This document shows, piece by piece, positions 6,049 to 50,097 of a stretch of DNA of 64,000 nucleotides. The position numbers were made by a program, and so were the translations under genes. Source of the DNA: Actinomycetota bacterium (GTDB taxonomy: Bacteria > Actinomycetota > CADDZG01 > WHSQ01); the NCBI GenBank assembly GCA_009379915.1, contig WHSV01000006.1, positions 279 through 64,278 on the forward strand. The letters run 5' to 3'. The notes below the pieces were generated by a model. The model was not told the origin of the DNA, did not search any database, and was given only the letters and a program-made list of their open reading frames with translations. Each line of letters begins with the position of its first letter. Position 1 is the stretch's first letter.

Positions 6049-6061
6049 CGGATAGCCCCCA

Positions 6062-6083
6062 GTAGATTTGTCGACTTCTCTAC
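6062..6083. repeat. ATTTGTCGAC-family box (GTAGA-N3-GTCGAC-N3-TCTAC)
   Basis: The sequence gtagatttgtcgacttctctac lies in the 61-nt gcvT-gcvPA spacer, 14 nt upstream of the gcvPA start. Confidence 0.6.
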
Positions 6084-6109
6084 CTGTTGATGTGTTGCCT
6101 TGTCGTCGG

Positions 6110-9435: not shown

Positions 9436-10614
9436 TCAGTTGCCTATCCACTGTCCCCATGAAAGGACGGTAGCAAGCCCCTCGACCGCCCAGGAGGGCT
9501 GCGGTTCCTCGATGCGCGAGCGCGTCATCGCGGGCACCCGATCGATGACGCGCTCGCCCGAGGTCACGATGACCGATCCAACGACATCGCGGGGCGCCAA
9601 CGGAAGGTCGTAGGAGCGCGCCGGTTCGAAAGACACTTCGATGGTGTCGGGCAGGGCCAGACCTCGCACGGTCCGAGTTGCGTGGGCCCGGACCGAGCCT
9701 GCGGGATCGAGAACAACCGTGCCCACCTCGGCTCCGCGCTCCAGCAGCACGGAGCGCCGGAGCTTGGCGAAACCGTAGTCGAGGAGGGCGCGGGAATCGG
9801 CGAAGGAGTCGGCCGAGCGGAGGACGACTCCGATGAGCCGGCGCTTGCGACGTACGGCCGCCGACACGAGAGCGTTGCCCGCTCCGAGAGTGTAGCCCGT
9901 CTTGATGCCGACGGCGCCCCTATAACTCTCGAGTAGAAGATTACGGTTCTGGATGGTGACCGTTCCCTCCGGCCCCTCGACGGCCGCCTTCCGCAGGCCC
10001 ACGATCTCCCGCAGGACGGGCTCTTCGAGCAGCTCGCCCGCGATGATCGCCAGGTCGGCAGCCGAGGAGTAGTGACCCGCGGTGTCGAGCCCATGCGGTG
10101 TCACGAAGGCTGTGTGGTCGAGCTCGAGGCGGCGCGCCTGGGCATTCATGCTTGCGACGAAGGCCTCCTGGGAACCCGACACGTGCTCGGCCAGGGCGAT
10201 GGCGGCGTCGTTGGAGGACGACAGGAGCAGCGCCGCCAGAAGGGCTTCGACCGACCAGACCTGGCCGGCCTTCAGATCGAGCCCTCCCCCGCCGGCGATC
10301 GCCGCGGTGTCCGATACCCGGACCTCGTCGCCCAGCACCCCCGCCCGAACCGTCAGCACGGCGGTCATCATCTTGGTGGTGCTGGCGTTGGGCAGCTCGG
10401 CTGCGGCGTTGCGCTGGAACAGGGTGTCGCCGGTATCCGAGATCACGAGACAAGCCTCGCAGCCGACCGTGGGTGGCCGTAGCGTTGGCCGCTTGTCTGC
10501 CTCCCGCGCCTGCGCGACCACCAGGGCCGAGGTGGTGGCGCTCGAAGGTCCCGCCGCCGTCTCGAGGGCAAGCGCCAGGACCAGGATTGCAATGGGTAAG
10601 CGACTTATCGACAA
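9436..10614 (-). CDS. D-alanyl-D-alanine carboxypeptidase (S11 penicillin-binding protein)
   Basis: ORF 9436..10614 with a signal peptide and the motifs SxxK (ASTTKMM), SxN (SSNDAA) and KTG (IKTGYT). Confidence 0.88.
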   Translation of the reverse strand: MSISRLPIAILVLALALETAAGPSSATTSALVVAQAREADKRPTLRPPTVGCEACLVISDTGDTLFQRNAAAELPNASTTKMMTAVLTVRAGVLGDEVRVSDTAAIAGGGGLDLKAGQVWSVEALLAALLLSSSNDAAIALAEHVSGSQEAFVASMNAQARRLELDHTAFVTPHGLDTAGHYSSAADLAIIAGELLEEPVLREIVGLRKAAVEGPEGTVTIQNRNLLLESYRGAVGIKTGYTLGAGNALVSAAVRRKRRLIGVVLRSADSFADSRALLDYGFAKLRRSVLLERGAEVGTVVLDPAGSVRAHATRTVRGLALPDTIEVSFEPARSYDLPLAPRDVVGSVIVTSGERVIDRVPAMTRSRIEEPQPSWAVEGLATVLSWGQWIGN

Positions 10615-10645
10615 ATAGATATACCTACTTGGACAGAAGTTGATC
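10603..10645. repeat. two adjacent ATTTGTCGAC-family boxes
   Basis: The sequence acttatcgacaaatagatatacctacttggacagaagttgatc fills the MerR-stop to dac-start spacer and overlaps the dac TTG start. Confidence 0.55.
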
Positions 10646-11838: not shown

Positions 11839-11866
11839 GCTATACCGCTACTTTAGGGTTAGTCAA
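11839..11866 (-). promoter_or_regulatory. candidate promoter TTGACT-16-TATAGC (near-leaderless FHA gene)
   Basis: Minus strand: TTGACT (11866-11861), 16 nt, then TATAGC (11844-11839). The ATG at 11829 lies 9 nt downstream. Confidence 0.35.
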
Positions 11867-12274: not shown

Positions 12275-12325
12275 CCGGCTCTCCTTTCGCCTCGCTCAAC
12301 GATCTCCTTCGAACCCTCTCCATCA

Positions 12326-12343
12326 ACATGTCGACAAATCGTC
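12326..12343. repeat. ATTTGTCGAC-family box
   Basis: The sequence acatgtcgacaaatcgtc lies about 55 nt upstream of the gcvH start and overlaps the stop of the upstream gene. Confidence 0.6.
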
Positions 12344-14861
12344 AAGCCGACTCGTCGACAGCATTCGCCACGACTCGATCGACGAGGTCAGCGTAGTCCT
12401 CGGCGAGCGCCGCTGCCTCGTGCTGTGACGATGCCTCGGCCCAGATCGTGCACCGGGGCTCGTCCGGGGATGGAATTACGAGGACCCAGCGATCATCCTC
12501 GACGATCTTGACGCCGTCGAGCAGCACCTGCCGGCCGTGCTTGGCCCGCATTGCGACCTCGCGCATGACCGTTCCCTTTTGTTGCCAGGGTGTTCTCACC
12601 GTGCGCCTGACCAGATGGCTGTCGGGCAGGGCCCCGAGCAGGTCGGACAGCGGTTTGCCCGCGGTGACCCTCAGCTCGAGGGCCTTGCAGAAGGTCATCA
12701 TCGCATCGGAGGCCGGCATGAAATGAGGCCAAATCAGCGTCCCCTCGGTGTCCCCCGCGAAATCGACCTCCACGCGCTGCGCCTGAGCCATGAGAGCGGG
12801 GAGACCGGTGGGCGTCCACTGCAGGGGCACGCCGGCGTCTGCGGCCAGCCGCTCCGCCAGAAAAGGCGCCGACACCGGAACTGCGACCGTGCGCGCCCCT
12901 CTCTGCACCTCGTGCTGGAGAAAGGCCAGGAGGGCTTGCCCCTGCGTCACGGGGTTGCCCCGGTCGTCGATGAGGTGCGCTATCTCCCCTCCCGGCTCGA
13001 GGACCACGCCGAGGTCCGAGCCGGACTTTTTCACGTGCTCGCTGACGGTCTCGATCAACCGGTCGATCTCGGCGCTGCCGAGCACCGGCCTGTGCTCGTC
13101 GGTGAACGCGTTGACCGACAGGGCCTGGACCCCCAGACGCCCCAGGACCGATGTCCCCACCCGGGACGCCGCCCCGTAGGCGTAGTCGATCACGACCTTC
13201 AGGTGTGCAGACCTGATGACGTCGAGTTCGACCGACCTGAGGAGCCCCGTCGAGTAACCACCTAGGGCGTGGGCGGGAAACTCCAGCTCTCCGAGCCGCT
13301 GGGCGCCGGGCCTCCGAAAGTCCTCTCGGAAGAAGAGCCTGTCGATCTTTCGCTGTGTGCTCTCGTCGATATCGGCGCCCTCGGAGTCGAACAGCCGTAT
13401 CTGAACGACCTCGGAATCCTCGTTGGATGTTCTGACGCTGATGCCCCCGGCGGCCTGCTCGGTGCCCACGGTGAAGCGGGTGACCGGCAACGCCATCAAC
13501 TCGAGGTCGTGACAGGTGACCCCCGTCGAGGTCAGCCCCGCGATGAGGGCGCGCTTTATCGTGCGCGCGGCCCGGCTGGCGTCCCGGCCCAGCACCACGG
13601 TGCTGTTGCGCGGGAGCATCGTTCCGTAGGCCATGCCAAGGCGCACCGCGACCTGCGGCGTCATCCCGATGTTGACCAGGCCCGATACGCCTCTGGCCCC
13701 GAAGAGGCTGCGACTCGCCCTTCGCTCGCGCACGATGCTCTCGGTAACGATCGCCCCGGCCTCGACCGTGCGCAAAGGGTAAACCTTCACTCCAGGCTTG
13801 ATCAGCGCGCCCGAGCCCACCACGACCTCGTCGCCGAGGACCGCCCCTTCCTCGACCGTCGATCCCCGCCCGAGCGATGAGCCCCGGCCCAAAACGGACC
13901 CGCGCACCTGCGATCCCGGGCCCACGTGCCCCGCTTCCATCACGACTCCGCCCACGACCGACGCCTCGGCCCCCACGATCGCGTGATCGCCGATGACCGC
14001 TCCGCCCTCGATGCGCGCGTTCGGACCCACGCGGCAGTTGTCGCCTATCACCGCAGGTCCGGTGATGACGGCCGAGTCATCGATGTCGACGTCCTCGCCG
14101 ACCCAGACGCCCGGCTCCAGCTCGAACCCCGGCATGTCGACCTCGACCCTGCCCTCGACCGCGTCGAGCTGCGCCTGCAGGTAGGCCTCCGCGTTTCCGA
14201 CGTCGGTCCAGTAGTCGTCGGTGATGAACCCGAATATGGGAAGGCCGTCCGCGAGCATCCGGGGAAAGAGCTCGGAGGAGAAGTCATAGGGGCGGTCGTC
14301 CGGGATGAGGTCGAGCACTTCGGGCTCGAGGACGTAGATGCCGGTGTTGACGGCATCCGAGAAGACCTGTCCCCACGACGGTTTCTCGAGGAAGCGCTCG
14401 ATCCTGCCGTCGGGTGCGGTCATGACGATGCCGAACTCCAGTGGGTCCGGCATCCGCTTCAAGACCAGAGTGGCCGCCGCCTCGCGCTCTTGATGCCACG
14501 CGAGAGCACGACCGAGGTCCAGATCGGTCAACGCGTCCCCGGAGATGACGAGGAAGCGTCCCGTGAGTAGGTCCCGCGCCCCCAGAACCGAACCGGCGGT
14601 TCCAAGTGGCACGTCTTCCGTGGCATAGGCCAGGGAGACGCCCATGTCGGAGCCGTCGTCGAAATAGTTGCGAATTACCGAGGAGAGGAACTGAACCGTG
14701 GCGACGACGTCGGTGATTCCGTTGCGTCGCAGGAGATCCACGATGTGCTCCATCAAGGGCCGGTTCGCCACGGGGAGCATCGGCTTCGGCAGGTTGCTCG
14801 TCAGCGGTCGAAGCCGCGTGCCCTCGCCCCCCGCCATTACCACCGCCTGGAGGTCGCTCAC
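12342..14861 (-). CDS. bifunctional sugar-1-phosphate nucleotidyltransferase / phosphomannomutase
   Basis: ORF 12342..15182 trimmed to the GTG at 14861 (GTGA overlap with the upstream stop). It has an N-terminal MAGGEGTRLRPLT, a left-handed beta-helix repeat region, and a C-terminal phosphohexomutase-like part. Confidence 0.85.
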   Translation of the reverse strand: MSDLQAVVMAGGEGTRLRPLTSNLPKPMLPVANRPLMEHIVDLLRRNGITDVVATVQFLSSVIRNYFDDGSDMGVSLAYATEDVPLGTAGSVLGARDLLTGRFLVISGDALTDLDLGRALAWHQEREAAATLVLKRMPDPLEFGIVMTAPDGRIERFLEKPSWGQVFSDAVNTGIYVLEPEVLDLIPDDRPYDFSSELFPRMLADGLPIFGFITDDYWTDVGNAEAYLQAQLDAVEGRVEVDMPGFELEPGVWVGEDVDIDDSAVITGPAVIGDNCRVGPNARIEGGAVIGDHAIVGAEASVVGGVVMEAGHVGPGSQVRGSVLGRGSSLGRGSTVEEGAVLGDEVVVGSGALIKPGVKVYPLRTVEAGAIVTESIVRERRASRSLFGARGVSGLVNIGMTPQVAVRLGMAYGTMLPRNSTVVLGRDASRAARTIKRALIAGLTSTGVTCHDLELMALPVTRFTVGTEQAAGGISVRTSNEDSEVVQIRLFDSEGADIDESTQRKIDRLFFREDFRRPGAQRLGELEFPAHALGGYSTGLLRSVELDVIRSAHLKVVIDYAYGAASRVGTSVLGRLGVQALSVNAFTDEHRPVLGSAEIDRLIETVSEHVKKSGSDLGVVLEPGGEIAHLIDDRGNPVTQGQALLAFLQHEVQRGARTVAVPVSAPFLAERLAADAGVPLQWTPTGLPALMAQAQRVEVDFAGDTEGTLIWPHFMPASDAMMTFCKALELRVTAGKPLSDLLGALPDSHLVRRTVRTPWQQKGTVMREVAMRAKHGRQVLLDGVKIVEDDRWVLVIPSPDEPRCTIWAEASSQHEAAALAEDYADLVDRVVANAVDESA

Positions 14862-15604: not shown

Positions 15605-15634
15605 ATCATAACCGGGGCCTTTCGGCGGGCCCAA
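15605..15634 (-). promoter_or_regulatory. candidate tRNA-Pro promoter TTGGGC-18-TATGAT
   Basis: Minus strand: TTGGGC (15634-15629), 18 nt, then TATGAT (15610-15605). The -10 ends 8 nt before the mature tRNA 5' end. Confidence 0.4.
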
Positions 15635-15640
15635 TCCGAC

Positions 15641-15662
15641 TACTTATCTACAAATCGATAAG
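15641..15662. repeat. ATTTGTCGAC-family box variant (CTTATC-N8-GATAAG)
   Basis: The sequence tacttatctacaaatcgataag lies immediately upstream of the predicted -35 of the tRNA-Pro promoter. Confidence 0.55.
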
Positions 15663-15808
15663 ACTCTTCATTGCCAAGTGGATAAGGGGATGTGTGACCA
15701 AGTGGACGACCGAACCGAGCCGACGAGCGCCGCCATCCTGCAGGACCCGTCCGCAGCCCGCGGAGCGGACCTCCGCCGCCCGCCGGAGAAGACTTGCCTC
15801 AGCTTGAT

Positions 15809-17798: not shown

Positions 17799-19111
17799 CC
17801 GTATCTTCCCTGTGCGCGCCCAAGCAGATCGAGAAACTCGGGGAACGAGGTGCTCACGCTGCTCCACCCCTTCACCACGACGGGCTCCTCGGAGCGCAAC
17901 CCCGCCACCGCGAACGACATCGCGGCGCGATGGTCGCCGCGCGCGTCCACCTCGGCACCCTTGAACACCGAGGGCCCCCGAATCCGCATCCCATCCGGCT
18001 CTGGACTGCAGTCAACCCCGAGCTCCCGAAGTCCTGTACACATGACATCGATTCGATCCGACTCCTTCACGCGCAACTCCTGGGCGTTCCGGATGAGCGT
18101 CTCTCCCTCGGCACAGGAGGCCAGCACGGCAACCACCGGAAGTTCGTCGATCAGAGTGGGTATCTCCTCGGCGCCTTCGATGGTCGTTCCGGTGAGCTCC
18201 GAGCCGCGCACGCTCACGTCCCCGAACGGCTCATCGAATCGTTTTCCGGCGACCCGAACGTCGATCTCGGCCCCCATCCTGGACATCACGTCGAGGAGTC
18301 CCGTCCGGCTCGGATTCAGTCCCAGGTTGGTGATCGTGAGATCCGAACCGTCGACGATCGCCGCGGCCACGAGAAGGAACGCGGCCGACGAGATGTCCCC
18401 GGGGACGTCCCAGGTCATCGCCGACAGGGCAGGGGTGGGTTCGAGGCGGATCCGGTTGCTCTCAACGCGAAGCCTCGCTCCCGCGGCGGCGAGCATCCGC
18501 TCGGTGTGGTCCCGGCTCGCGCCCGGCTCGATGAGCGTCGTGGGCCCGGTGGCGTGGAGGCCGGCGAGCAGAACGGCCGTCTTGACCTGCGCGCTCGCAA
18601 TCGGTAGCCGCAGATCGACGCCCGATAGGTCGCCGCCTCGGATGGCGAGCGGAGCCCGGTCGCCGAAAGCACGGCCCTCGATCCGCGCCCCCATCTGCCG
18701 GAGCGGAGCGACCACTCGCAGCATGGGCCGCCGGAGGAGGGTGGCGTCCCCCGTCACCACGGACAGACCCTCGACTCCCGCGCAGAGCCCGAGAATCGTG
18801 CGCATCGTGGTTCCGGAATTGCCCGCATCGAGAACGTGCTCGGGCTCTCTCAAGCCGCCCACTCCCCTACCCTCAACCTCAACCTGATAGTTTGCCTCGT
18901 CGGAGGTGATGGCCGCTCCGAGCAACTCCAGAAGGGATGCGGTCGCGCGGCAGTCCTCACCGAGGTTCGCGTTGGCCACGAGCGACCGTCCGCTCGCGAG
19001 GCTCGAGATCATGAGCGCCCTATGCGTGATGGACTTGTCGCCCGGAACCTCGAGAGTTCCCCGCAGGGGTGACGGGGCGGGCGAGGAACGCCACAGTCGT
19101 CTTATCGACAT
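17795..19111 (-). CDS. aroA: 3-phosphoshikimate 1-carboxyvinyltransferase (EPSP synthase)
   Basis: ORF 17795..19111. It contains LEVPGDKSITHRALM and LGNSGTTMR-type motifs and is 438 aa. Confidence 0.93.
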   Translation of the reverse strand: MSIRRLWRSSPAPSPLRGTLEVPGDKSITHRALMISSLASGRSLVANANLGEDCRATASLLELLGAAITSDEANYQVEVEGRGVGGLREPEHVLDAGNSGTTMRTILGLCAGVEGLSVVTGDATLLRRPMLRVVAPLRQMGARIEGRAFGDRAPLAIRGGDLSGVDLRLPIASAQVKTAVLLAGLHATGPTTLIEPGASRDHTERMLAAAGARLRVESNRIRLEPTPALSAMTWDVPGDISSAAFLLVAAAIVDGSDLTITNLGLNPSRTGLLDVMSRMGAEIDVRVAGKRFDEPFGDVSVRGSELTGTTIEGAEEIPTLIDELPVVAVLASCAEGETLIRNAQELRVKESDRIDVMCTGLRELGVDCSPEPDGMRIRGPSVFKGAEVDARGDHRAAMSFAVAGLRSEEPVVVKGWSSVSTSFPEFLDLLGRAQGRYG

Positions 19112-19133
19112 GGCTCGTTGTCTACTTGTCTAC
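19101..19133. repeat. box variants including the tandem octamer TTGTCTAC x2
   Basis: The sequence is cttatcgacatggctcgttgtctacttgtctac. The TTGTCTAC copies lie at 19118-19125 and 19126-19133, directly upstream of the aroA ATG (19111). Confidence 0.5.
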
Positions 19134-19145
19134 TCATTGCCTTCT

Positions 19146-20255
19146 CTAGATATCTACTTCGCTTCGCTCCACCCTGTAACCCAGGCTCATCAACGCCCCG
19201 ACCAGGGATTCCGCCTTGGCGGGACCGGATACGACGAGCTCCAACCGCCCCTGGCCCCCCTCGGTGGAGTGGACGATGCGAAGGTCCTCGAGGTTGGCTC
19301 CGAGCCGGCCGGCGGCCGTCGTCACCTCCGCGAGCACTCCCGGGCGGTCGGGCACCATCAGGGTAAGGCCAACCGGCTCGCCTCCGAAGTCGGGCTTGGC
19401 GAAGACGTCGAGCCGGGCCCTGCGAGAGCGGTCGAGCCACGACCGCAGCTCGTCCCAGTGCTGGCGCGCGATCATCGAGCTCACCGCCTCGAGGCGGTGA
19501 CCGAGGCCGGCAAGACTCTCGAGTACCGCTTGATGGTTCGATCGAATGATGGCGACCCACAGGTCCGGGTTGCTCGCGGCGATGCGGGTCACATCGCGGA
19601 ACCCGCCGCCCGCGAGACCGAGCAGAGCCTCCCGGTCGCCGGCTGCCAGCGCGACATCCACGAGAGCGCTGGCGGTCAGCTGGGGAAGGTGGCTGAGACG
19701 CGCGACCAGTGCGTCGTGAGTCGACGGATCGAGTGCGACGGGCCGGGCGCCGAGAGAAACAACCACCGATGTCACGGTCGAATATGCCTTCGATGCCGTG
19801 ATGGACGTCGGGGTCACGATCCACCAGGCGTCGTCGAACAGATGCTCGCTCGCCGCGTCGATCCCATGTCGCTCCGACCCCGACATCGGGTGACCGCCGA
19901 CGAAGGCTGCGCCCAGACACCGCTCTCCCGCGGCGACTACCTCCACCTTCGCGCTCCCCACATCGGTCACGATCGCACCGGGGGCCACGTACGAGGCGAT
20001 GCGCTCGAGCACGCCGGGGATGAGATCGACGGGGGTGGCAACCACTACCAGATCCACCCCGCCGGCCGCGTCCTCGAGGGAATCGGCCGCCCCGCCGATC
20101 GCGCCGCACTCGAGCGCGCCGGCCACCGCCTGCGGGTTCACGTCGAAGCCCACGACCCGGTCGACCCCCGCTCGCTTTCTGAGTCCGAGTCCGATCGACC
20201 CTCCGATCAATCCCAGACCGACGATCCCGACGCGGCCGAGCGCCGCGGCGACCAT
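19146..20255 (-). CDS. tyrA: prephenate dehydrogenase with C-terminal ACT-like domain
   Basis: ORF 19146..20423 trimmed to MVAAALGRVGIVGLGLIGGSIG (ATG 20255), which carries a Rossmann GxGxxG motif. Confidence 0.88.
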   Translation of the reverse strand: MVAAALGRVGIVGLGLIGGSIGLGLRKRAGVDRVVGFDVNPQAVAGALECGAIGGAADSLEDAAGGVDLVVVATPVDLIPGVLERIASYVAPGAIVTDVGSAKVEVVAAGERCLGAAFVGGHPMSGSERHGIDAASEHLFDDAWWIVTPTSITASKAYSTVTSVVVSLGARPVALDPSTHDALVARLSHLPQLTASALVDVALAAGDREALLGLAGGGFRDVTRIAASNPDLWVAIIRSNHQAVLESLAGLGHRLEAVSSMIARQHWDELRSWLDRSRRARLDVFAKPDFGGEPVGLTLMVPDRPGVLAEVTTAAGRLGANLEDLRIVHSTEGGQGRLELVVSGPAKAESLVGALMSLGYRVERSEVDI

Positions 20256-20280: not shown

Positions 20281-20670
20281 TCATTCGCGAAGATCCGTCC
20301 TGAGTTGCTCGGCACCCTCGAGATAGACGTGGCGCAGGGTCTCGGCCGGTCTTGTCGTGTAGAGATGCATGAGGACCCGGATGCACCGCGGCACCGATCC
20401 CGGCACGTCGATCTCGCGAGCACAGAGGAGGGGTACCGATGACAGCCCGAGCGCCCGGGCGGCGGCGGCCGGAAACTCGGCCGAGAGGTCCGCTGTGGTC
20501 GTGAAGATCATGCTGACGAGATCCTCGGTCGCGATCCCGTTGCGGCCGATCATCTCGGCGAGAAGGCGCTCGGTCGCATCGACGATCGCCCGGCCTTCAT
20601 CGGCCGCTGCCGTGGTCGCCCCCCTCAGGGCCCGTAATCTTTGGTCGGCCACTTGTCTCCTCGTGCTCAA
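20281..20670 (-). CDS. aroH: chorismate mutase (AroH type)
   Basis: ORF 20281..20670. LRALRGATT...MIFTTTADL...VPLLCAREIDVPG is an AroH-class signature. The start may instead be the GTG at 20652. Confidence 0.85.
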   Translation of the reverse strand: MSTRRQVADQRLRALRGATTAAADEGRAIVDATERLLAEMIGRNGIATEDLVSMIFTTTADLSAEFPAAAARALGLSSVPLLCAREIDVPGSVPRCIRVLMHLYTTRPAETLRHVYLEGAEQLRTDLRE

Positions 20671-20674
20671 GTCG

Positions 20675-20694
20675 GCTTGTCGACAAATCTACCT
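20675..20694. repeat. ATTTGTCGAC-family box
   Basis: The sequence gcttgtcgacaaatctacct ends 4 nt upstream of the aroH TTG start. Confidence 0.6.
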
Positions 20695-20720
20695 ATCGAC
20701 CCCTCGTAGTAACGCTAACG

Positions 20721-20750
20721 CGGGGGCTACTGCGCCGCCAGAGGCCCCCG
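20721..20750 (-). terminator. hairpin between rluB and aroH
   Basis: CGGGGGC (20721-20727) pairs with GCCCCCG (20744-20750) around a 16-nt loop. There is no U-tract. Confidence 0.3.
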
Positions 20751-20768
20751 ACCTCAAATCACCTTGTG

Positions 20769-20784
20769 GTCTTGTCGACAAGTA
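20769..20784. repeat. box with the perfect 12-bp palindrome CTTGTCGACAAG
   Basis: The sequence is gtcttgtcgacaagta, with the palindrome at 20771-20782, about 10 nt after the rluB stop. Confidence 0.6.
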
Positions 20785-20791
20785 CACTCGT

Positions 20792-21535
20792 CTACAACCC
20801 GGCGGCCCGGTAAAGCGCCCGCACCTCGTCCGGCTTCAGCCGGCGATAGGTCGCGGGCTTCAGCCGGCCAAGCATAAGCGGGCCTATGGCGGTTCGGACG
20901 AGGTGCCTGACGGGGTGACCCACCGCCTCCAGCATGCGCCTGAGCTGGCGATTGCGGCCCTCGGCCAAGGAGATCTCGATCAGGGTCCCCCCGGGAGTAC
21001 GCTCCACGAGGCGAGCCCGCGCCGGGGCCGTCATGCCGCCGTCGAGCTCCACGCCTCGGGCGATCTGGCGCACGGTCTTGTCCTTCACGCTTCCCTCGAC
21101 CTCCGCGAGGTAGGTCTTGTGCACGCCGAAGCGGGGATGGGTCAGCCTCAGCGCCAGGTCTCCGTCGTTGGTCAGGAGAAGAGCCCCCCCGCTGTCCAGG
21201 TCGAGCCGGCCGACGGGATAGACGCGGGTATCCACGTCGTCGAGCAGGTCGATCACCGTTTCCCTGCCGGCCTCGTCGCTCGCTGTGGTTACCACCCCGA
21301 CCGGCTTGTTCATCAGGTAGTAGACGAGATCGGTGGACAGAGGCACACGCGAACCATCAACCTCTACTAGATCCTTTGACGGATCGATCCGCCGGCCCAG
21401 CTCGACCCGCTTGCCGTTCACCCGGATCCGTCCCCTGACGATCATCTCCTCGATCGTTCTGCGGGAGGCAACGCCGGCTCTGGCCAGCACCTTTTGGATC
21501 CGCTCCCCCTCGGGGGCGGACTCCTTGCGGTTCAT
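20792..21535 (-). CDS. rluB: 23S rRNA pseudouridine synthase (RluB/RsuA family)
   Basis: ORF 20792..22357 trimmed to MNRKESAPEGERIQKVLARAGVASRR (S4 domain) with the catalytic GRLDLDSGGALLLTNDG. The start forms an ATGA overlap with the scpB stop. Confidence 0.9.
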   Translation of the reverse strand: MNRKESAPEGERIQKVLARAGVASRRTIEEMIVRGRIRVNGKRVELGRRIDPSKDLVEVDGSRVPLSTDLVYYLMNKPVGVVTTASDEAGRETVIDLLDDVDTRVYPVGRLDLDSGGALLLTNDGDLALRLTHPRFGVHKTYLAEVEGSVKDKTVRQIARGVELDGGMTAPARARLVERTPGGTLIEISLAEGRNRQLRRMLEAVGHPVRHLVRTAIGPLMLGRLKPATYRRLKPDEVRALYRAAGL

Positions 21536-22886: not shown

Positions 22887-22922
22887 TCAGCTTTCGGTCC
22901 TCTCGCCGTCTCTTCCGTAGAG

Positions 22923-22955
22923 ACATGTCGACAAATGTACTTGTAGACAAATCTG
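22923..22955. repeat. two tandem ATTTGTCGAC-family boxes
   Basis: The sequence is acatgtcgacaaatgtacttgtagacaaatctg. GTCGACAAAT lies at 22927-22936 and GTAGACAAAT at 22943-22952 (16-nt phase), about 40 nt upstream of the scpA ATG. Confidence 0.6.
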
Positions 22956-23056
22956 CCCCGCCGGGTCGTCCTCCGGGGAAGCCAGCGACGAGCCTATAGC
23001 GGCGCCGCCCAGAGACCCCGCTTTTCGGGCCATCGTCAGTCGGGCGATCCGCGGGT

Positions 23057-24130: not shown

Positions 24131-24799
24131 ATGCAATCTCCCCTGGAACTCCTGCGCGACGAGCAGGTCGCCTTCGTGATGCTCGTGATCTCGCTCGCGC
24201 TCTCTCTGTCCCTGCACGAGTTCGCACATGCCTTCGTCGCGGACCTCCAGGGCGACCGCCTGCCCCGGGCCATGGGTCGTGTGACGCTCAACCCGGTTCG
24301 TCACCTGGACCCACTCGGCACGCTGCTGATCCTTCTCGTAGGGTTCGGCTGGGCCAAGCCGGTCGAGTTCCGGCCCTCGGCGCTGCGATCCCGGCACTTC
24401 GGAGCGGCCCTGGTCGCGCTCGCGGGTCCCTCGATGAACCTGCTGTTGGCCGTCGTCGGGCTAGTGGGGCTGAGGCTGACGACCTCCGATGCGTTCATCA
24501 GCGAGGGCATCGTGTTCATCGATCAAGAGGGCCTGATGGGGCAGATAGCGATCTTTTGGGTCTTCTTTTCCACCATCAACATCCTTCTCGCGGTCTTCAA
24601 TCTCATCCCGCTTCCGCCCCTGGACGGCTCCCGGCTTCTGACCATCTTTCTCCCGCCCAACCGGCAGAACATCATCTACTTCCTCGACAAGTACGGCTTC
24701 TTCATCCTCCTCGGCCTGCTCCTCTTCGGTGGCTTCACCTTCCTCGAGCCGATCATCCTCGCCGTCCGCAGGCTGATCTTCGACCTGGTTCTTACTTAA
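24131..24799 (+). CDS. site-2 protease (peptidase M50) family membrane metalloprotease
   Basis: ORF 24131..24799. It has HEFAHAF (HExxH), multiple TM segments, and NLIPLPPLDGS. Confidence 0.85.
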   Translation: MQSPLELLRDEQVAFVMLVISLALSLSLHEFAHAFVADLQGDRLPRAMGRVTLNPVRHLDPLGTLLILLVGFGWAKPVEFRPSALRSRHFGAALVALAGPSMNLLLAVVGLVGLRLTTSDAFISEGIVFIDQEGLMGQIAIFWVFFSTINILLAVFNLIPLPPLDGSRLLTIFLPPNRQNIIYFLDKYGFFILLGLLLFGGFTFLEPIILAVRRLIFDLVLT

Positions 24800-25087
24800 G
24801 GCTCCACTAGAGTGTTAGGGTTGTCGGCATGGAGCTTCCCTCGGCCGGGCTGCATGCGAGAAGGTGGGGTCCCCTAGTTGGCGGCTGCGCCGCGAGATGC
24901 CGTCCCCGACTCCACCCGCACGCTCCAGAGGCGACCCCGGCCGCACCCCGCGGCCGTCCCCGGCAGGCGCGCGCCGTCCACCCGGTTCCGCCGCTCTTCG
25001 GTTTGCTCCTCCCGACCGGCGCCGGGGCAGCAGAGGGCCCTGCTTCCCGGGGTCGATCCGCGGAAGATCGACTAGGTGTGGACCATT

Positions 25088-25116
25088 CATCGACTTGTCC
25101 ATATGGCTACAAATGG
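25088..25116. repeat. box-like cluster around the palindrome CCATATGG
   Basis: The sequence catcgacttgtccatatggctacaaatgg contains TTGTCCATA and, on the other strand, ATTTGTAGCC. Confidence 0.45.
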
Positions 25117-25190
25117 CTTTGTGCCTCCCGTTTGCGGTTGGTTCTCCCTGCTCACAGGGCGAGTCCACTAGTCGCTTCGACCACATGGCG

Positions 25191-25238
25191 TCTTGTCGCC
25201 AAGTAGATATCTCGCCTAATCCAACTGTAGACATGTCG
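25191..25238. repeat. box-like cluster
   Basis: The sequence tcttgtcgccaagtagatatctcgcctaatccaactgtagacatgtcg contains TCTTGTCGCCAAGTAGA and TGTAGACATGTCG. Confidence 0.45.
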
Positions 25239-25566
25239 TTACCGCTCCAGACCTCATGCCCGCCTCGGCCTCGGCGCCGCCCCTCGAATGAGCTCGGGAC
25301 CCCGGGGGGCCATTGCCGGACCGGCGCGGCATGACGGCCCCAGCGGCGACGCCGACCCACGTCCCCGCGCTGCGGTTCTCGGCGCCCGCCGTCGCCGGGG
25401 TGACCCGGGCTCGCCAGTCGAGGTTCCCGGTGCTCGGGCGCACGTCCCCCGGCGGGAGCCAGAGGAACCACCATAAGTCTCGACTTTAGCCTTATACTTC
25501 ACTCCACGCTCGGTCCGCCCTTTGCGCGGGTCGCTCAGGAGCGACGGGCCTCGCGATCCCGGGAAC

Positions 25567-25600
25567 CAAAAGGGGGCCGACCACCACGCCGGCCCCCTTT
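25567..25600 (-). terminator. intrinsic terminator of the parA-like/RHH operon
   Basis: On the minus strand, GGGGGCCGG-cgtggtg-GTCGGCCCCC is followed by TTTTGG, 14 nt after the stop at 25614. Confidence 0.6.
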
Positions 25601-25613
25601 CGATCGAGGTCGT

Positions 25614-25991
25614 TCAGTCGTTCAACTTCCGAAGCAGGACCGAGTCCTCCCCGCGCGCGCCGAAGTCCTCGAGGACATATGCCACGGCCGCCCTCACGAT
25701 CCGGCCGCGGTCCGCGGAGAGGCCGTAGGCGGCCCTCAGCTCGAGCCTGGTCCGCTCTATCGCCATGAGATCGTCGGGCGTGCAATAGAACGTGATCTTC
25801 TCCTCGTGCTTGGGCGCCTTGGGCTTGGGAGCCGTCTCCGGCGCCGCTTCGGACACCGGCGTGGCGACTTGTAGCTTTGTCGACTTGGCGTCTTGCATAC
25901 TTGTCTCTGAACTGGGACGTGTTTCTCTGGGTCGGTCCGAGGTCTTTCGGAAGAGCTCCTCAGCTCCGGGCAAACTGGCTCGACGAGACAC
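25614..25991 (-). CDS. small protein with a disordered N-terminus and putative ribbon-helix-helix C-terminal domain
   Basis: ORF 25614..25991. The GTG start is preceded by AAGGAGG at 9 nt, inside the parA 3' end. KITFYCTPDDLMAIERTRLELRAAYG..RGRIVRAAVAYVLED reads as strand-helix-helix. Confidence 0.6.
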   Translation of the reverse strand: MSRRASLPGAEELFRKTSDRPRETRPSSETSMQDAKSTKLQVATPVSEAAPETAPKPKAPKHEEKITFYCTPDDLMAIERTRLELRAAYGLSADRGRIVRAAVAYVLEDFGARGEDSVLLRKLND

Positions 25992-26880
25992 GCTCCATCA
26001 CCTCCTTGGCGAGTTTTCTATAGGCGGCCGCCCCATGAGAGCTCGGGGCGTACGACAGGATCGGCTGCCCCGCAACCGGGGCCTCCGCGAATCGAATGGT
26101 CTTGCGCACGACGGTGTCGAACAGCTTGTCTCCAAAGGCGTCCTCGACCGTGCTGAGGACCTCCTTGCTGTGGAGCGTGCGGCGGTCGAACATCGTCGCT
26201 ATGATTCCATCAACGTGAAGTCGAGGGTTAAGGCGCTCCTGCACGACCCCTATCGAGTGCATGAGCTGCGCCATCCCTCTCAGGGCGTAGTACTCGCACT
26301 CGAGCGGGATGATGACCCCGTCGGCCGCGGTCAGGGAGTTCACCGTCAGCAGGCCCAGCGACGGCATGCAGTCGATGAAGATGAAGTCGTAGCGCGACCT
26401 CAGCGGAGCGAGCACCCGCAAGAGCGACTGTTCCCTCGCCACCTCGCCGGAGAGCATGAGCTCGGCGGCCGAGAGGTCGATGTTCGAGGGCAGCAGATCC
26501 AGGTCCTCGATCTGCGTGTGAATAATTGCGTCATCGGTCTCGGCATCTCGATCCAGGAGGCAGTTGTAGATGGTGACCTCGAGCTCGTCCGGCTGGTAGC
26601 CGAGCCCGATCGCGCAGCCTCCCTGAGGATCGAAGTCGACCAGGAGCACCTTCTGGCCCAGGTCAGCAAGCCCCGCCCCCAGGTTGATGGCCGAGGTCGT
26701 CTTGCCCACCCCCCCCTTCTGGTTGGCGAGGGCGATGATGCGAGCGGTGCGTGCCGGATCATCGTCTGCGATCAGGTCGAGGCCCGGTGGGGTCGGCCGT
26801 GGCTCCTCCGGCGACTCTGCACCCCGAGGCTCCTGAGCCCCGAGCACCTGAGTGGTTCCGTACCGGTGTGACTCCTCCAT
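25960..26880 (-). CDS. ParA/Soj-family ATPase (Rv1708/PldP-like position)
   Basis: ORF 25960..26880. It has the deviant Walker A NQKGGVGKTTSAINL, DFDPQGG, and IIPLECEYYALRG. Confidence 0.9.
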   Translation of the reverse strand: MEESHRYGTTQVLGAQEPRGAESPEEPRPTPPGLDLIADDDPARTARIIALANQKGGVGKTTSAINLGAGLADLGQKVLLVDFDPQGGCAIGLGYQPDELEVTIYNCLLDRDAETDDAIIHTQIEDLDLLPSNIDLSAAELMLSGEVAREQSLLRVLAPLRSRYDFIFIDCMPSLGLLTVNSLTAADGVIIPLECEYYALRGMAQLMHSIGVVQERLNPRLHVDGIIATMFDRRTLHSKEVLSTVEDAFGDKLFDTVVRKTIRFAEAPVAGQPILSYAPSSHGAAAYRKLAKEVMERVSSSQFARS

Positions 26881-26904
26881 CCAGCCTCCCTGGGGTCGTC
26901 ATAG

Positions 26905-26922
26905 ATACTTGTCGACAAATCA
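26905..26922. repeat. ATTTGTCGAC-family box
   Basis: The sequence atacttgtcgacaaatca lies 25 nt upstream of the parA-like ATG and downstream of the candidate promoter. Confidence 0.6.
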
Positions 26923-26938
26923 CCTTGTGGGCCGCCGG

Positions 26939-26967
26939 AGCGTATCCCGAAAAGACCCTCCCTACAA
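26939..26967 (-). promoter_or_regulatory. candidate promoter TTGTAG-17-TACGCT
   Basis: Minus strand: TTGTAG (26967-26962), 17 nt, then TACGCT (26944-26939). Confidence 0.3.
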
Positions 26968-48739: not shown

Positions 48740-49560
48740 GAGCTCATCACGGTTGCGAGCCGGTCGTGCTGCTCGAGCTCCGCGACCGCGGGGAGGAGCA
48801 CGAGGTGATCGCACCCCGCCTCTGCATAACCGCGCACGAACTGGGCGATGCTCTGCGGGGTGGTCAGGAGACCCTCGGTGATCTTGGCCGCGAAGGGCCC
48901 GGTGAAGGCGTAGTAGTCCCTCATGTAGGAGCGACCGCGCTCGATCGTCGCATCGTCACCGAGCGCGAAGTAAGCCTGTGCCCAAAGCTTCGGCTTGCCC
49001 GGCCGGCCGGCTTCGATCCAAGCGGTCGTTGCGCGGTCCGCCGCACGCTGGAACGATCGCGGCGGTCCCCCACCGTGGACGTAACCATCCGCGTAGCGAG
49101 CCGCTCGCATCAAGGAGATATCGCTGCCTCCCCCGACCAGGAGGTGGGGGCCGCGCTCCAGCTCCTCGAAGCCGTCGCGAAGATCTGCAAGCTGCTCGTC
49201 GAGTCGGTGGCCGCGGCCCTCGTGGCGCTCGCCGAGCGCGTCGTAGTCGTCCGGGCGCGCCCCCACTGCAAGTCCGAGAGTCAGGCGGCCCCGCGAGATC
49301 CCCTGGATGGTGGCGGCCTCGCGGACGAAGATCGGCGTCCTTCTCAGGGGGCCGATCACCACCATCGTCACCAGGTCGATCCGGGTCGTGGTCGCGGCCA
49401 CCGCCGCCAGGAGGGACATCGGCTCGTGGCTGTCGTGGCGCATGCGGTCCACGACTCCGAGGCTGGCGAACGGACTCCCCTCTGCTCGCCGGGCCCAATC
49501 GAGCAACAGGCGCGCGTCGGTTCCCGGAACCGAGTTCGGGAGTCCTATCCCAACGTGCAA
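48736..49560 (-). CDS. luciferase-like (LLM class) oxidoreductase
   Basis: ORF 48736..49560. It has an LLM-type TIM-barrel pattern (VGIGLPNS..., LTLGLAVGARPDDY). GGAGGG lies 7 nt upstream of the TTG start. Confidence 0.75.
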   Translation of the reverse strand: MHVGIGLPNSVPGTDARLLLDWARRAEGSPFASLGVVDRMRHDSHEPMSLLAAVAATTTRIDLVTMVVIGPLRRTPIFVREAATIQGISRGRLTLGLAVGARPDDYDALGERHEGRGHRLDEQLADLRDGFEELERGPHLLVGGGSDISLMRAARYADGYVHGGGPPRSFQRAADRATTAWIEAGRPGKPKLWAQAYFALGDDATIERGRSYMRDYYAFTGPFAAKITEGLLTTPQSIAQFVRGYAEAGCDHLVLLPAVAELEQHDRLATVMSS

Positions 49561-49610
49561 GTCCCAACCCTCCCTGTACGTGCCTGCCTGGAGCCAAAAC
49601 CTACGTCAAG

Positions 49611-49616
49611 TACGCT
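49611..49616 (+). promoter_or_regulatory. -10 hexamer TACGCT, 7 nt before the GTG (leaderless-type)
   Basis: The context is aagTACGCTcagtgacGTG. Confidence 0.35.
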
Positions 49617-49623
49617 CAGTGAC

Positions 49624-50097
49624 GTGAGCGAACACGAGACACCCGCATCGATCCGCATCCAGCGACGCATTGAGTGGAGCGATACCGACGCGTCCGGTCA
49701 CTGGCACAACACGGCGGCCTTTCGAATGATCGAATGGGCCGAAACTGCCCTCTTCGAACGGCTCGGGTTCCTCGACGACGTCTACGGGCACCTTCCGCGC
49801 GTTCACATCTCGATCGACTTCACCGAATCGCTCGATCACCGTGACCTGGTCGACGTCAGACTCGCGATCGTCGACGTAGGCCGGACCTCGATCACCTACG
49901 ATTTCTCGATCGAACGAGACGGCCGGGAGTGCGTCAGAGCCAAGGTCGTGACCGCACTCCGAACACCCGACGACGCGAGCCGTGAATGGCCCGACGAGTA
50001 CAAGCGACTTCTTGTGACCGCCGGGCCACAGGCACCCGAGCTGCTTGTTGTCCCCGAACAGCCGGCCGAGGAACCGTTGAGGAGAGTCCGAACTTGA
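49624..50097 (+). CDS. acyl-CoA thioesterase (hotdog fold, 4HBT/YbgC-like)
   Basis: This is the 3' part of the 48727..50097 frame. It contains IRIQRRIEWSDTDASGHWHNTAAFRMIEWAE... and is 157 aa. Confidence 0.75.
   Translation: MSEHETPASIRIQRRIEWSDTDASGHWHNTAAFRMIEWAETALFERLGFLDDVYGHLPRVHISIDFTESLDHRDLVDVRLAIVDVGRTSITYDFSIERDGRECVRAKVVTALRTPDDASREWPDEYKRLLVTAGPQAPELLVVPEQPAEEPLRRVRT

Follow-up and report, generated by a model that had tools for sequence, protein, structure and literature searches.

We describe an 814-bp gene-free island at positions 24800-25613 of a 64,000-nucleotide stretch of an Actinomycetota contig (WHSV01000006.1), here called the window. The island separates two converging genes, one for an M50-family metalloprotease and one for a small protein of 125 amino acids (aa) whose gene is coupled to that of a ParA-like ATPase. 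Its best explanation is a non-coding spacer whose functional part is an AT-rich core. From alignments and motif scans we show that the arrays of 8-bp units in this core are conserved, phased and regionally clustered. At a probability of about one half, we favour the reading that the core is a docking and operator site of the adjacent small protein, within a chromosomal multi-site centromere/operator system of type Ib-like or SegAB-like kind. The genes and core elements on which this reading turns are as follows.

24131 to 24799, + strand: gene for the M50-family metalloprotease, an open reading frame (ORF) matching Pfam PF02163 Peptidase_M50 (E 5e-17); left border of the island
25078 to 25125: array B, about six phased 8-bp units (ACCATTCA, TCGACTTG, TCCATATG, GCTACAAA, TGGCTTTG and so on), inverted relative to array C
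25126 to 25159: spacer between arrays B and C, variable in sequence and nearly constant in length in the alignments
25160 to 25243: array C, about ten phased 8-bp units (TCCACTAG, TCGCTTCG, ACCACATG, GCGTCTTG, TCGCCAAG, TAGATATC and so on)
25614 to 25991, - strand: small-protein gene, an ORF of 125 aa; right border of the island
25960 to 26880, - strand: gene for the ParA-superfamily ATPase (Pfam AAA_31, E 2e-62; CbiA, E 9e-22)

Arrays B and C are runs of one degenerate unit. Matches in position-weight scans fall 8 or 16 bp apart, and display in an 8-nt register resolves runs of 5-10 consecutive units. The consensus of 79 units is T(.77) C(.67) G(.58) A(.63) C(.72) W W G/A. Shifted by two bases, it becomes the palindromic hexamer GTCGAC (variants GTCTAC and GTAGAC) plus WW; the re-registered unit is WGTCGACW, and tandem array DNA can be written as the repeat (TGTCGACA)n. 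Autocorrelation in the cores of nine genomes gives z = 9.9, 8.5 and 6.6 at lags of 8, 16 and 24, and in the window's other arrays z = 8.8 and 9.4 at lags of 8 and 16. Tandem Repeats Finder did not detect the arrays, because their units are too degenerate for it. The bare hexamer GTCGAC is common throughout (80 sites), and specificity must therefore come from the AT flanks and the tandem phasing. The same abundance ruled out restriction-site avoidance of GTCGAC, and the box motif was dropped as a sigma-70-type promoter when inspection gave no consistent -35/-10 spacing.

A profile of the core from nine genomes gives matches at E 1e-18 to 1e-39 and matches itself in reverse orientation. It also finds weak matches elsewhere between genes of the window and at syntenic spots in relatives, and the palindrome common to those places is ACTTGTCGACAAAT. 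With at most one mismatch, TTGTCGACAA occurs eight times where 1.3 occurrences are expected; a full-text literature search for it returned cloning primers only. A first-pass annotation of the window, made from its letters, had pointed to two palindromes in the core, and both are present (CCATATGG at 25099 and TAGATATC at 25204). The repeat unit itself, and the conserved boxes at the island edges described below, were absent from that annotation.

The same unit recurs outside the island. We scanned the window for four consecutive phased units, with local shuffles setting a maximum chance score of 21.3. Array B scores 28.6 and is conserved in nine genomes; array C scores 26.1. The scan yields 12 array clusters with scores of 24-31, all within 6051-26931; the best score in the other 43 kb of the 64 kb is 11, and positions 27-64 kb hold no arrays despite many intergenic gaps. 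Besides arrays B and C, the following were found.

6051 to 6102: outermost array, downstream of gcvT, seen in the site, register and 4-unit scans
10592 to 10643: array upstream of a D-Ala-D-Ala carboxypeptidase gene
12315 to 12362: array upstream of gcvH
15631 to 15706: array upstream of a tRNA-Pro gene (found by Rfam at 15.5 kb)
19097 to 19160: array between the prephenate dehydrogenase and 5-enolpyruvylshikimate-3-phosphate (EPSP) synthase genes
20648 to 20802: two arrays (starting at 20648 and 20751) in the gap between rluB and the chorismate mutase gene, syntenic in relatives
22912 to 22959: array upstream of scpA, syntenic in relatives
25856 to 25911: array inside the small-protein gene, in the part coding for the linker
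26892 to 26944, - strand: parA leader, with an array (best site GATTTGTCGACAAGT, site score 26.8) between a conserved -10-like TACGCT (26939-26944 on the + strand) and the Shine-Dalgarno sequence GGGAGG (26885-26890)

The resulting 21-kb array domain is a co-oriented gene block that runs from the parA promoter to gcvT, with arrays in many of its intergenic gaps, and the island is the largest array block outside genes and leaders. The genes that flank arrays are unrelated in function (parA, scpA, chorismate mutase, EPSP synthase, tRNA-Pro, gcvH, carboxypeptidase). The tRNA-Pro array (15631-15710) holds TTATCCACT and CGTCCACT, 24 bp (three units) apart, which come nearest to DnaA boxes in the array domain; this array sits upstream of the likely TATGAT promoter of the tRNA, not in a leader.

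Relatives were collected as 18 loci from a genome scan with the M50 protein as query and 13 loci from a metagenome scan with the small protein as query, and two 20-kb loci (L095 and L096) were added. The gene order trpS - M50 - small gene - ParA is constant across all related loci. Synteny holds in all relatives (60-97% aa identity), those without an island included, for the arrays of the parA leader, the small gene, the scpA upstream region and the rluB-chorismate mutase gap. Across the 23 loci whose parA upstream regions were aligned, a conserved TAnnnT hexamer stands on one side of the array and the Shine-Dalgarno sequence on the other, which puts the array where the leader begins, an operator-like position as judged from the alignment. 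The one-sided layout, from the parA promoter downstream, recurs in the two 20-kb loci, where the 9 kb upstream of parA hold one weak site in L095 (score 16.5) and none in L096.

The array inside the small-protein gene can be read at the level of codons. It encodes the invariant peptide KSTKLQVA, through AAG TCG ACA AAG CTA CAA GTC, in the midst of a variable linker. Third-position GC content in these genomes is about 85%, and the rare A-ending codons of the array are nevertheless near-invariant over 26 loci (ACA in 24/26, CTA in 26/26, CAA in 25/26). Near-invariant rare codons in such genomes are direct evidence of selection on the nucleotide sequence itself, and the array offers a clean example of a DNA site fixed within a coding region by rare codons.

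Comparison of the islands themselves separates what is kept from what is not. The distance from M50 to the small gene is 25-110 bp in nine loci and 350-1730 bp in the others; it is 760-866 bp in the clade nearest to the window and 577 bp in L089. The 814-bp gap is thus of unusual size, since other relatives hold the same gene pair 25-110 bp apart. The largest gaps, of 1.6-1.7 kb, are in L011 (4615-6245) and L013 (4640-6380) and hold no credible ORF. The L013 gap has seven box sites in three clusters some 600-700 bp apart, and that of L011 about eight, less evenly grouped. In an alignment of nine islands, conservation is confined to four pieces: a box after the M50 stop codon, the AT-rich core (about 160 bp, roughly 25080-25245), a second box near the right end, and the terminator of the small gene. 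Those outside the core, and the arms between them, are:

24797 to 24825: left conserved box, with CCACTAGAGTGTTAG at 24804-24818, from the nine-island alignment and conservation profile
24830 to 25075: left arm, non-coding and unconserved, 74-81% GC in this genome only, with a hairpin at 25052 specific to the window
25250 to 25470: right arm, non-coding and unconserved, unalignable even with L082
25474 to 25497: right conserved box, ATAAGTCTCGACTTTAGCCTTATAC, from the same alignment and profile
25569 to 25600, - strand: intrinsic terminator of the small gene, a perfect 11-bp stem (25569-25579 with 25590-25600) followed by a T-run on the - strand

The terminator, which the first-pass annotation had placed at 25567-25600, holds up as a perfect 11-bp inverted repeat and is kept in all relatives in the island alignment. 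A scan of the island for consensus promoters and terminators gave no match; it missed this real terminator because the loop is 10 nt long. The left box reads CTCAAGT-N3-ACTTGAG-TGTTA in relatives, a 7-bp hairpin directly 3' of the M50 stop, and may be a 3'-end hairpin; an nhmmer profile of it finds matches in the close clade only. The right box may be a - strand promoter element. Both edge boxes resemble ACTTTAGGGTTAGT at 11850-11863, which lies 21-34 nt upstream of an FHA/zinc-ribbon (GarA-like) gene, and boxes of the ACTTTAGGGTTAGT type may be a lineage-specific promoter element. Paired with each other, the two edge boxes form an imperfect inverted repeat of 28 nt with 71% complementarity.

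Much of what first draws the eye in the island is not shared. The GC profile is as first described, with a left arm at 74-81%, a core at 53-57% and a right arm at 78-83% (arms overall 74-83%); relatives' arms reach just 60-77% GC, and the very GC-rich arms are therefore peculiar to this genome. The arms are unalignable among the nine islands, even against L082, although the ParA and small-gene 4-fold sites of L082 are 82-87% identical to those of the window. 4-fold-site identity to L005 is 0.44 (saturated) for M50, as against 0.67-0.78 for scpA, trpS, the small gene, parA and deoB, and the M50-island segment is therefore locally hyperdivergent or recombined. By these comparisons the arms are unconstrained filler DNA, evolving at least as fast as saturated synonymous sites. 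The hairpin GTCGATC-N7-GATCGAC is indeed present at 25052, but it is found in 0/8 homologous islands and is at chance level. Copies of CACGTCCCC were found at 25358 (first reported one position further on, at 25359) and 25441, and CGTCCCC also at 24901 and 24955 (reported at 24956); each of the eight related islands has 0-1 copies, and in 28% of composition-matched shuffles some 7-mer occurs at least four times. We regard the CACGTCCCC repeats and the 7-bp hairpin, like the GC richness of the arms, as lineage-specific noise.

We next consider the presumed binder of the arrays. The small ORF overlaps the 3' end of the ParA gene (25960) by 32 nt on the same strand, an arrangement kept in all relatives. 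ParA has 306 aa, with AAA_31 over residues 47-222 (E 2e-62) and no other domain; no N-terminal helix-turn-helix (HTH) is seen in the Pfam search, and NCBIfam gives ParA/RepA/MinD-type matches below their equivalog cut-offs. The locus context is chromosomal (xerD, scpAB, trpS, aroA, der), contigs reach 2.4 Mb, and tblastn finds no homologue in 72,556 plasmids. The small-protein family has 1379 homologues of 118-128 aa, all unnamed, without a Pfam domain and from Actinomycetota metagenomes. In their alignment an invariant N-terminal peptide, MSRRASLPGAEELFRRT (window 25942-25991), is followed by a variable low-confidence/disordered linker and a C-terminal pattern of EKITFYCT, helix, GxS and helix. 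This C-terminal pattern looks like that of a ribbon-helix-helix (RHH) protein, as a prediction from the alignment. Two AlphaFold2 (AF2) monomer models place an extended segment before helix 72-89, a GxS turn and helix 95-107, at a predicted local distance difference test (pLDDT) score of 62-64; they hold no ribbon, as expected of a monomer. The layout of MSRRASLPGAEELFRRT and disordered linker is like that of the ParA-stimulating tails of ParG, omega and ParB. The 125-aa protein is the most likely candidate for a box-binding partner of ParA.

In the system that we propose, a small DNA-binding protein would dock on each hexamer as a single dimer, with cooperative binding between neighbours along the array; ParG (PMC3130281) and MetJ (PMC3413123) bind in this way. 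The binder would most likely be the 125-aa protein, whose gene forms the right border of the island and is translationally coupled to that of the ParA-like ATPase. On the array of the parA leader it would autoregulate the operon, and it would also occupy the array in its own gene and the other arrays over the 21 kb downstream of the operon. Its conserved N-terminal peptide would contact ParA, making the coated arrays cargo or landmarks for ParA. The first-pass annotation had listed a centromere-like or other protein-loading site for the ParA/RHH pair among its options, and this is the option that the evidence favours, if on a different basis: the phased arrays that the core shares with the parA leader, the small gene and other sites.

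Partition by a ParA and an RHH protein is found on plasmids and, as SegAB, on archaeal chromosomes; bacterial chromosomes are thought to depend on an HTH-type ParB with parS sites. We state a wider form of the proposal tentatively, as something we rather doubt: uncultured Actinomycetota may carry a bacterial counterpart of SegAB, in which an 'orphan' ParA of PldP/Rv1708 type has an unrecognised 125-aa RHH-like partner (from an unnamed family of about 1400 members) that coats at least 12 met-box-like arrays over 21 kb beside scpAB, with the island and the in-gene site as parts of a multi-site centromere or organising centre. If this is true, the SegAB-like system might also load or position SMC-ScpAB.

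Several points weigh against the proposed docking and operator role. The island is missing (gaps of 25-50 bp) in six relatives, L006, L009, L010, L012, L017 and L019, which retain every other array, and it is therefore dispensable for the system. Units at the parA and scpA leaders are less degenerate than those of the island, and neither the edge boxes nor the roughly constant island length is accounted for by the model. Most arrays are in leaders of unrelated housekeeping operons, which suits a plain repressor no less than a centromere. Because the array scan used a unit model trained on the sites that it scores, independent evidence comes solely from the lack of arrays elsewhere. The binding of the small protein to the arrays is itself a prediction from sequence, and the AF2 monomer models hold just two helices after the extended segment. 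An RHH fold finds no support in Pfam (25 family members included), NCBIfam or PDB sequence and profile searches, in a Foldseek comparison of the AF2 models with the PDB, or in hhalign against ParG, CopG and omega sequences. Missing sequence similarity is not strong counter-evidence, because the ParB of pCXC100 is an RHH protein without a sequence-detectable DNA-binding motif (PMC3074162).

A pure repressor regulon is a serious rival, if in our judgement an unlikely one. The boxes would then be operators of a repressor (the small protein or another) for neighbouring operons, ParA would be uninvolved, and the island arrays would control unannotated transcripts that start in or near the island. 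Most arrays do lie in leaders or just before start codons (parA, scpA, chorismate mutase, gcvH, carboxypeptidase), the tandem 8-bp design is exactly that of MetJ-type repressors, the right box could be a promoter reading into the island given its resemblance to the sequence 5' of the FHA gene, and the island-free relatives retain the rest of the system. The genes next to arrays, however, have no common function, being concerned with segregation, aromatic amino-acid synthesis, glycine cleavage, tRNA and the cell wall. The arrays are also limited to one contiguous 21-kb block from parA, followed by 37 kb with none, and the array at tRNA-Pro sits 5' of the promoter, not in a leader. Inspection of the island arrays revealed no conserved -10-like element. 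Finally, the small gene is coupled to ParA, and its product has the conserved N-terminal peptide and disordered tail typical of ParA partners.

We consider it improbable that the island is a functionless leftover of a gene since lost or of an old insertion. The 814-bp gap between the convergent genes, as first annotated, is real and non-coding: the spread of GC content among codon phases is 0.03-0.23 in the island against 0.35-0.63 in the flanking genes, and no coding signal is left in the 814 bp. M50 is the sole + strand gene in the island's neighbourhood. The host is a high-GC Actinomycetota metagenome genome, and a 12.5-kb Logan contig (run SRR10173838) is identical across the locus. The public Logan annotation of this DNA calls a 219-aa gene (ORF219) at 24815-25474 on the - strand, a call that would suit a decayed gene, as would the fast-evolving, unalignable arms and an island length of 0 to 1.7 kb among relatives. 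No island ORF has a Pfam or NCBIfam match, though, and ORF219, the sole island ORF put to tblastn, has no match in relatives. (A tblastx comparison of the island with all loci was swamped by low-complexity GC-rich matches, and the targeted tblastn was used in its place.) Stops interrupt all six frames in 5/8 related cores (L005, L004, L084, L086 and L089), and no frame is open in every genome. ORF219 is therefore a spurious call, without periodicity, homologues or a core frame open in all relatives; here locus analysis corrects an automated pipeline. The decayed gene offered as one explanation in the first-pass annotation is not supported. A remnant would also not explain why conservation picks out the core, both edge boxes and the terminator amid saturated surroundings, or why the larger L011 and L013 islands have no real ORF yet 7-8 array sites.

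The first-pass annotation had also suggested one or two non-coding RNA (ncRNA) genes, of which the conserved core would be the functional part; we now think this very improbable. In its favour, RNA genes of GC-rich genomes typically show up as conserved AT-rich stretches, read-through from the convergent neighbours probably transcribes the island, and small hairpins could form from the palindromic units. Rfam nevertheless gives no match at the gathering threshold for the island in a search of the whole window (its tRNA-Pro match is elsewhere), and an E-value scan of 24600-25800 gives chance-level matches only (E > 1). The whole island folds no better than dinucleotide shuffles on either strand (z = -0.8 and -1.3), and RNAalifold assigns the core next to no consensus structure (-0.4 and -0.5 kcal/mol), with neither strand showing real covariation. 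The units, moreover, are found in either orientation and include copies within a coding region and 5' of a promoter, and palindromic hexamers in strict 8-bp phase are a feature of double-stranded DNA.

Still less probable is a cluster of DnaA boxes in the core, of datA, DARS or secondary-origin type. TTGTCGACA is one position off the actinobacterial DnaA box TTGTCCACA, and one-mismatch matches number 23 against 7.5 expected. There is, however, no perfect box in 64 kb; within the array domain the palindrome TTGTCGACAA is the main source of the enrichment, and TTGTCGACA palindromes make up most of the one-mismatch matches there and every match that is palindromic and read on both strands. The DnaA-box-like elements first annotated in the core are in fact units of the 8-bp-phased array family, and neither tandem 8-bp phasing nor hexamer palindromy is a DnaA-box feature. 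The island has no GC-skew switch or divergent gene orientation, and neither dnaA nor dnaN was found among the subset of window genes scanned against Pfam. A replication origin anywhere in the window was dropped as a candidate, the skew being uniform and the strand switch at 49 kb being flanked by fatty-acid genes. At that switch from - to + orientation, 48815-49985 is a 1.17-kb region without a confidently called gene, flanked by FMN/FAD oxidoreductase and acyl-CoA dehydrogenase genes and without a GC-skew switch.

Least probable of all is a miniature mobile element with the left and right boxes as terminal inverted repeats (of miniature inverted-repeat transposable element type), which the pairing of the edge boxes and the island's absence from some relatives might suggest, but against which stand a syntenic position shared by nine diverged genomes with one syntenic copy in each, no second core copy in the window or loci beyond the common box units, no transposase gene, no target-site duplication noticed at the borders (where no systematic search was made) and an interior made of the host's own array units.

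Among known systems, the proposed docking and operator system can be set first against the type Ib system ParF-ParG-parH/OF of plasmid TP228, in which ParG binds 4-bp boxes with 4-bp spacers, direct and inverted, as both operator and centromere (PMC3130281). As there, the gene after that of a small Walker ParA encodes a small protein whose N-terminal tail is flexible and which binds the centromere in TP228 and is predicted to do so here; the arrays are of short degenerate boxes with an 8-bp period, direct and inverted; and one array would be the operator at the operon promoter and a separate longer array the centromere, roles that we read from position and pattern. Binding in TP228 is cooperative and single boxes are insufficient, as we would predict for the present arrays. 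The features of type Ib found here are thus a small ParA without an N-terminal HTH, a partner gene directly downstream that overlaps it and is presumably co-transcribed, and iterated boxes that include a putative promoter operator; plasmid location is not among them, the locus being chromosomal and without a homologue in the plasmids searched. The box also differs (a palindromic GTCGAC here, ACTC in TP228), as does the extent, with at least 12 arrays over 21 kb in place of one locus and the longer array downstream of the operon, and the small protein has no detectable sequence similarity to ParG.

The box design is closer to that of MetJ, which binds tandem 8-bp palindromes with one dimer per box and whose ribbon reads KKITVSIP (PMC3413123). 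Tandem 8-bp palindromes and a K-I-T motif (in EKITFYCT here) are common to both. The boxes themselves differ (AGACGTCT for MetJ, WGTCGACW here), MetJ acts as a metabolic repressor, together with a co-repressor, and has no link to ParA, and the small protein has no Pfam or NCBIfam match to the MetJ family. A closer host is offered by the actinobacterial type Ib ParA/ParB system of pCXC100 from Leifsonia, where ParB has an RHH fold with no DNA-binding motif recognisable by sequence, and the centromere is made of unspaced, weakly conserved short repeats that are bound cooperatively (PMC3074162). Those repeats, unlike ours, are 9-bp non-palindromic direct repeats, and the system is plasmid-borne with a single centromere.

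By analogy, SegAB may serve as the chromosomal precedent for the proposed system. Archaeal SegB has palindromic sites (TCTAGA-S-TCTAGA) at its own promoter and in a major cluster around segAB (PMC8682754; bioRxiv 10.1101/2025.02.07.637068). The likeness lies in a chromosomal ParA-type ATPase with a small DNA-binding partner (predicted here) and in palindromic sites both at its own promoter and clustered round the operon; SegAB differs in being archaeal and in having sites that are mostly intragenic and scattered genome-wide, without 8-bp tandem arrays.

Within the Actinobacteria, the orphan PldP, a second ParA-like ATPase, is reported to have a partner and a cargo that are still unidentified (bioRxiv 10.1101/2025.07.02.662783); the text of that paper mentions neither xerD nor scpA. 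As general background, pldP and Rv1708 stand in an xerD...scpA-scpB neighbourhood. The ParA-like gene of the window has such a neighbourhood too and differs from pldP in having a conserved small gene coupled to the ATPase; the likeness to PldP drawn here is one of type and neighbourhood. There appears to be no earlier description of the motif, of the protein family or of the 21-kb array domain. To the orphan ParA question the locus thus brings three candidates, a partner protein family, a defined DNA motif and a site map, all of them testable though the hosts are uncultured.

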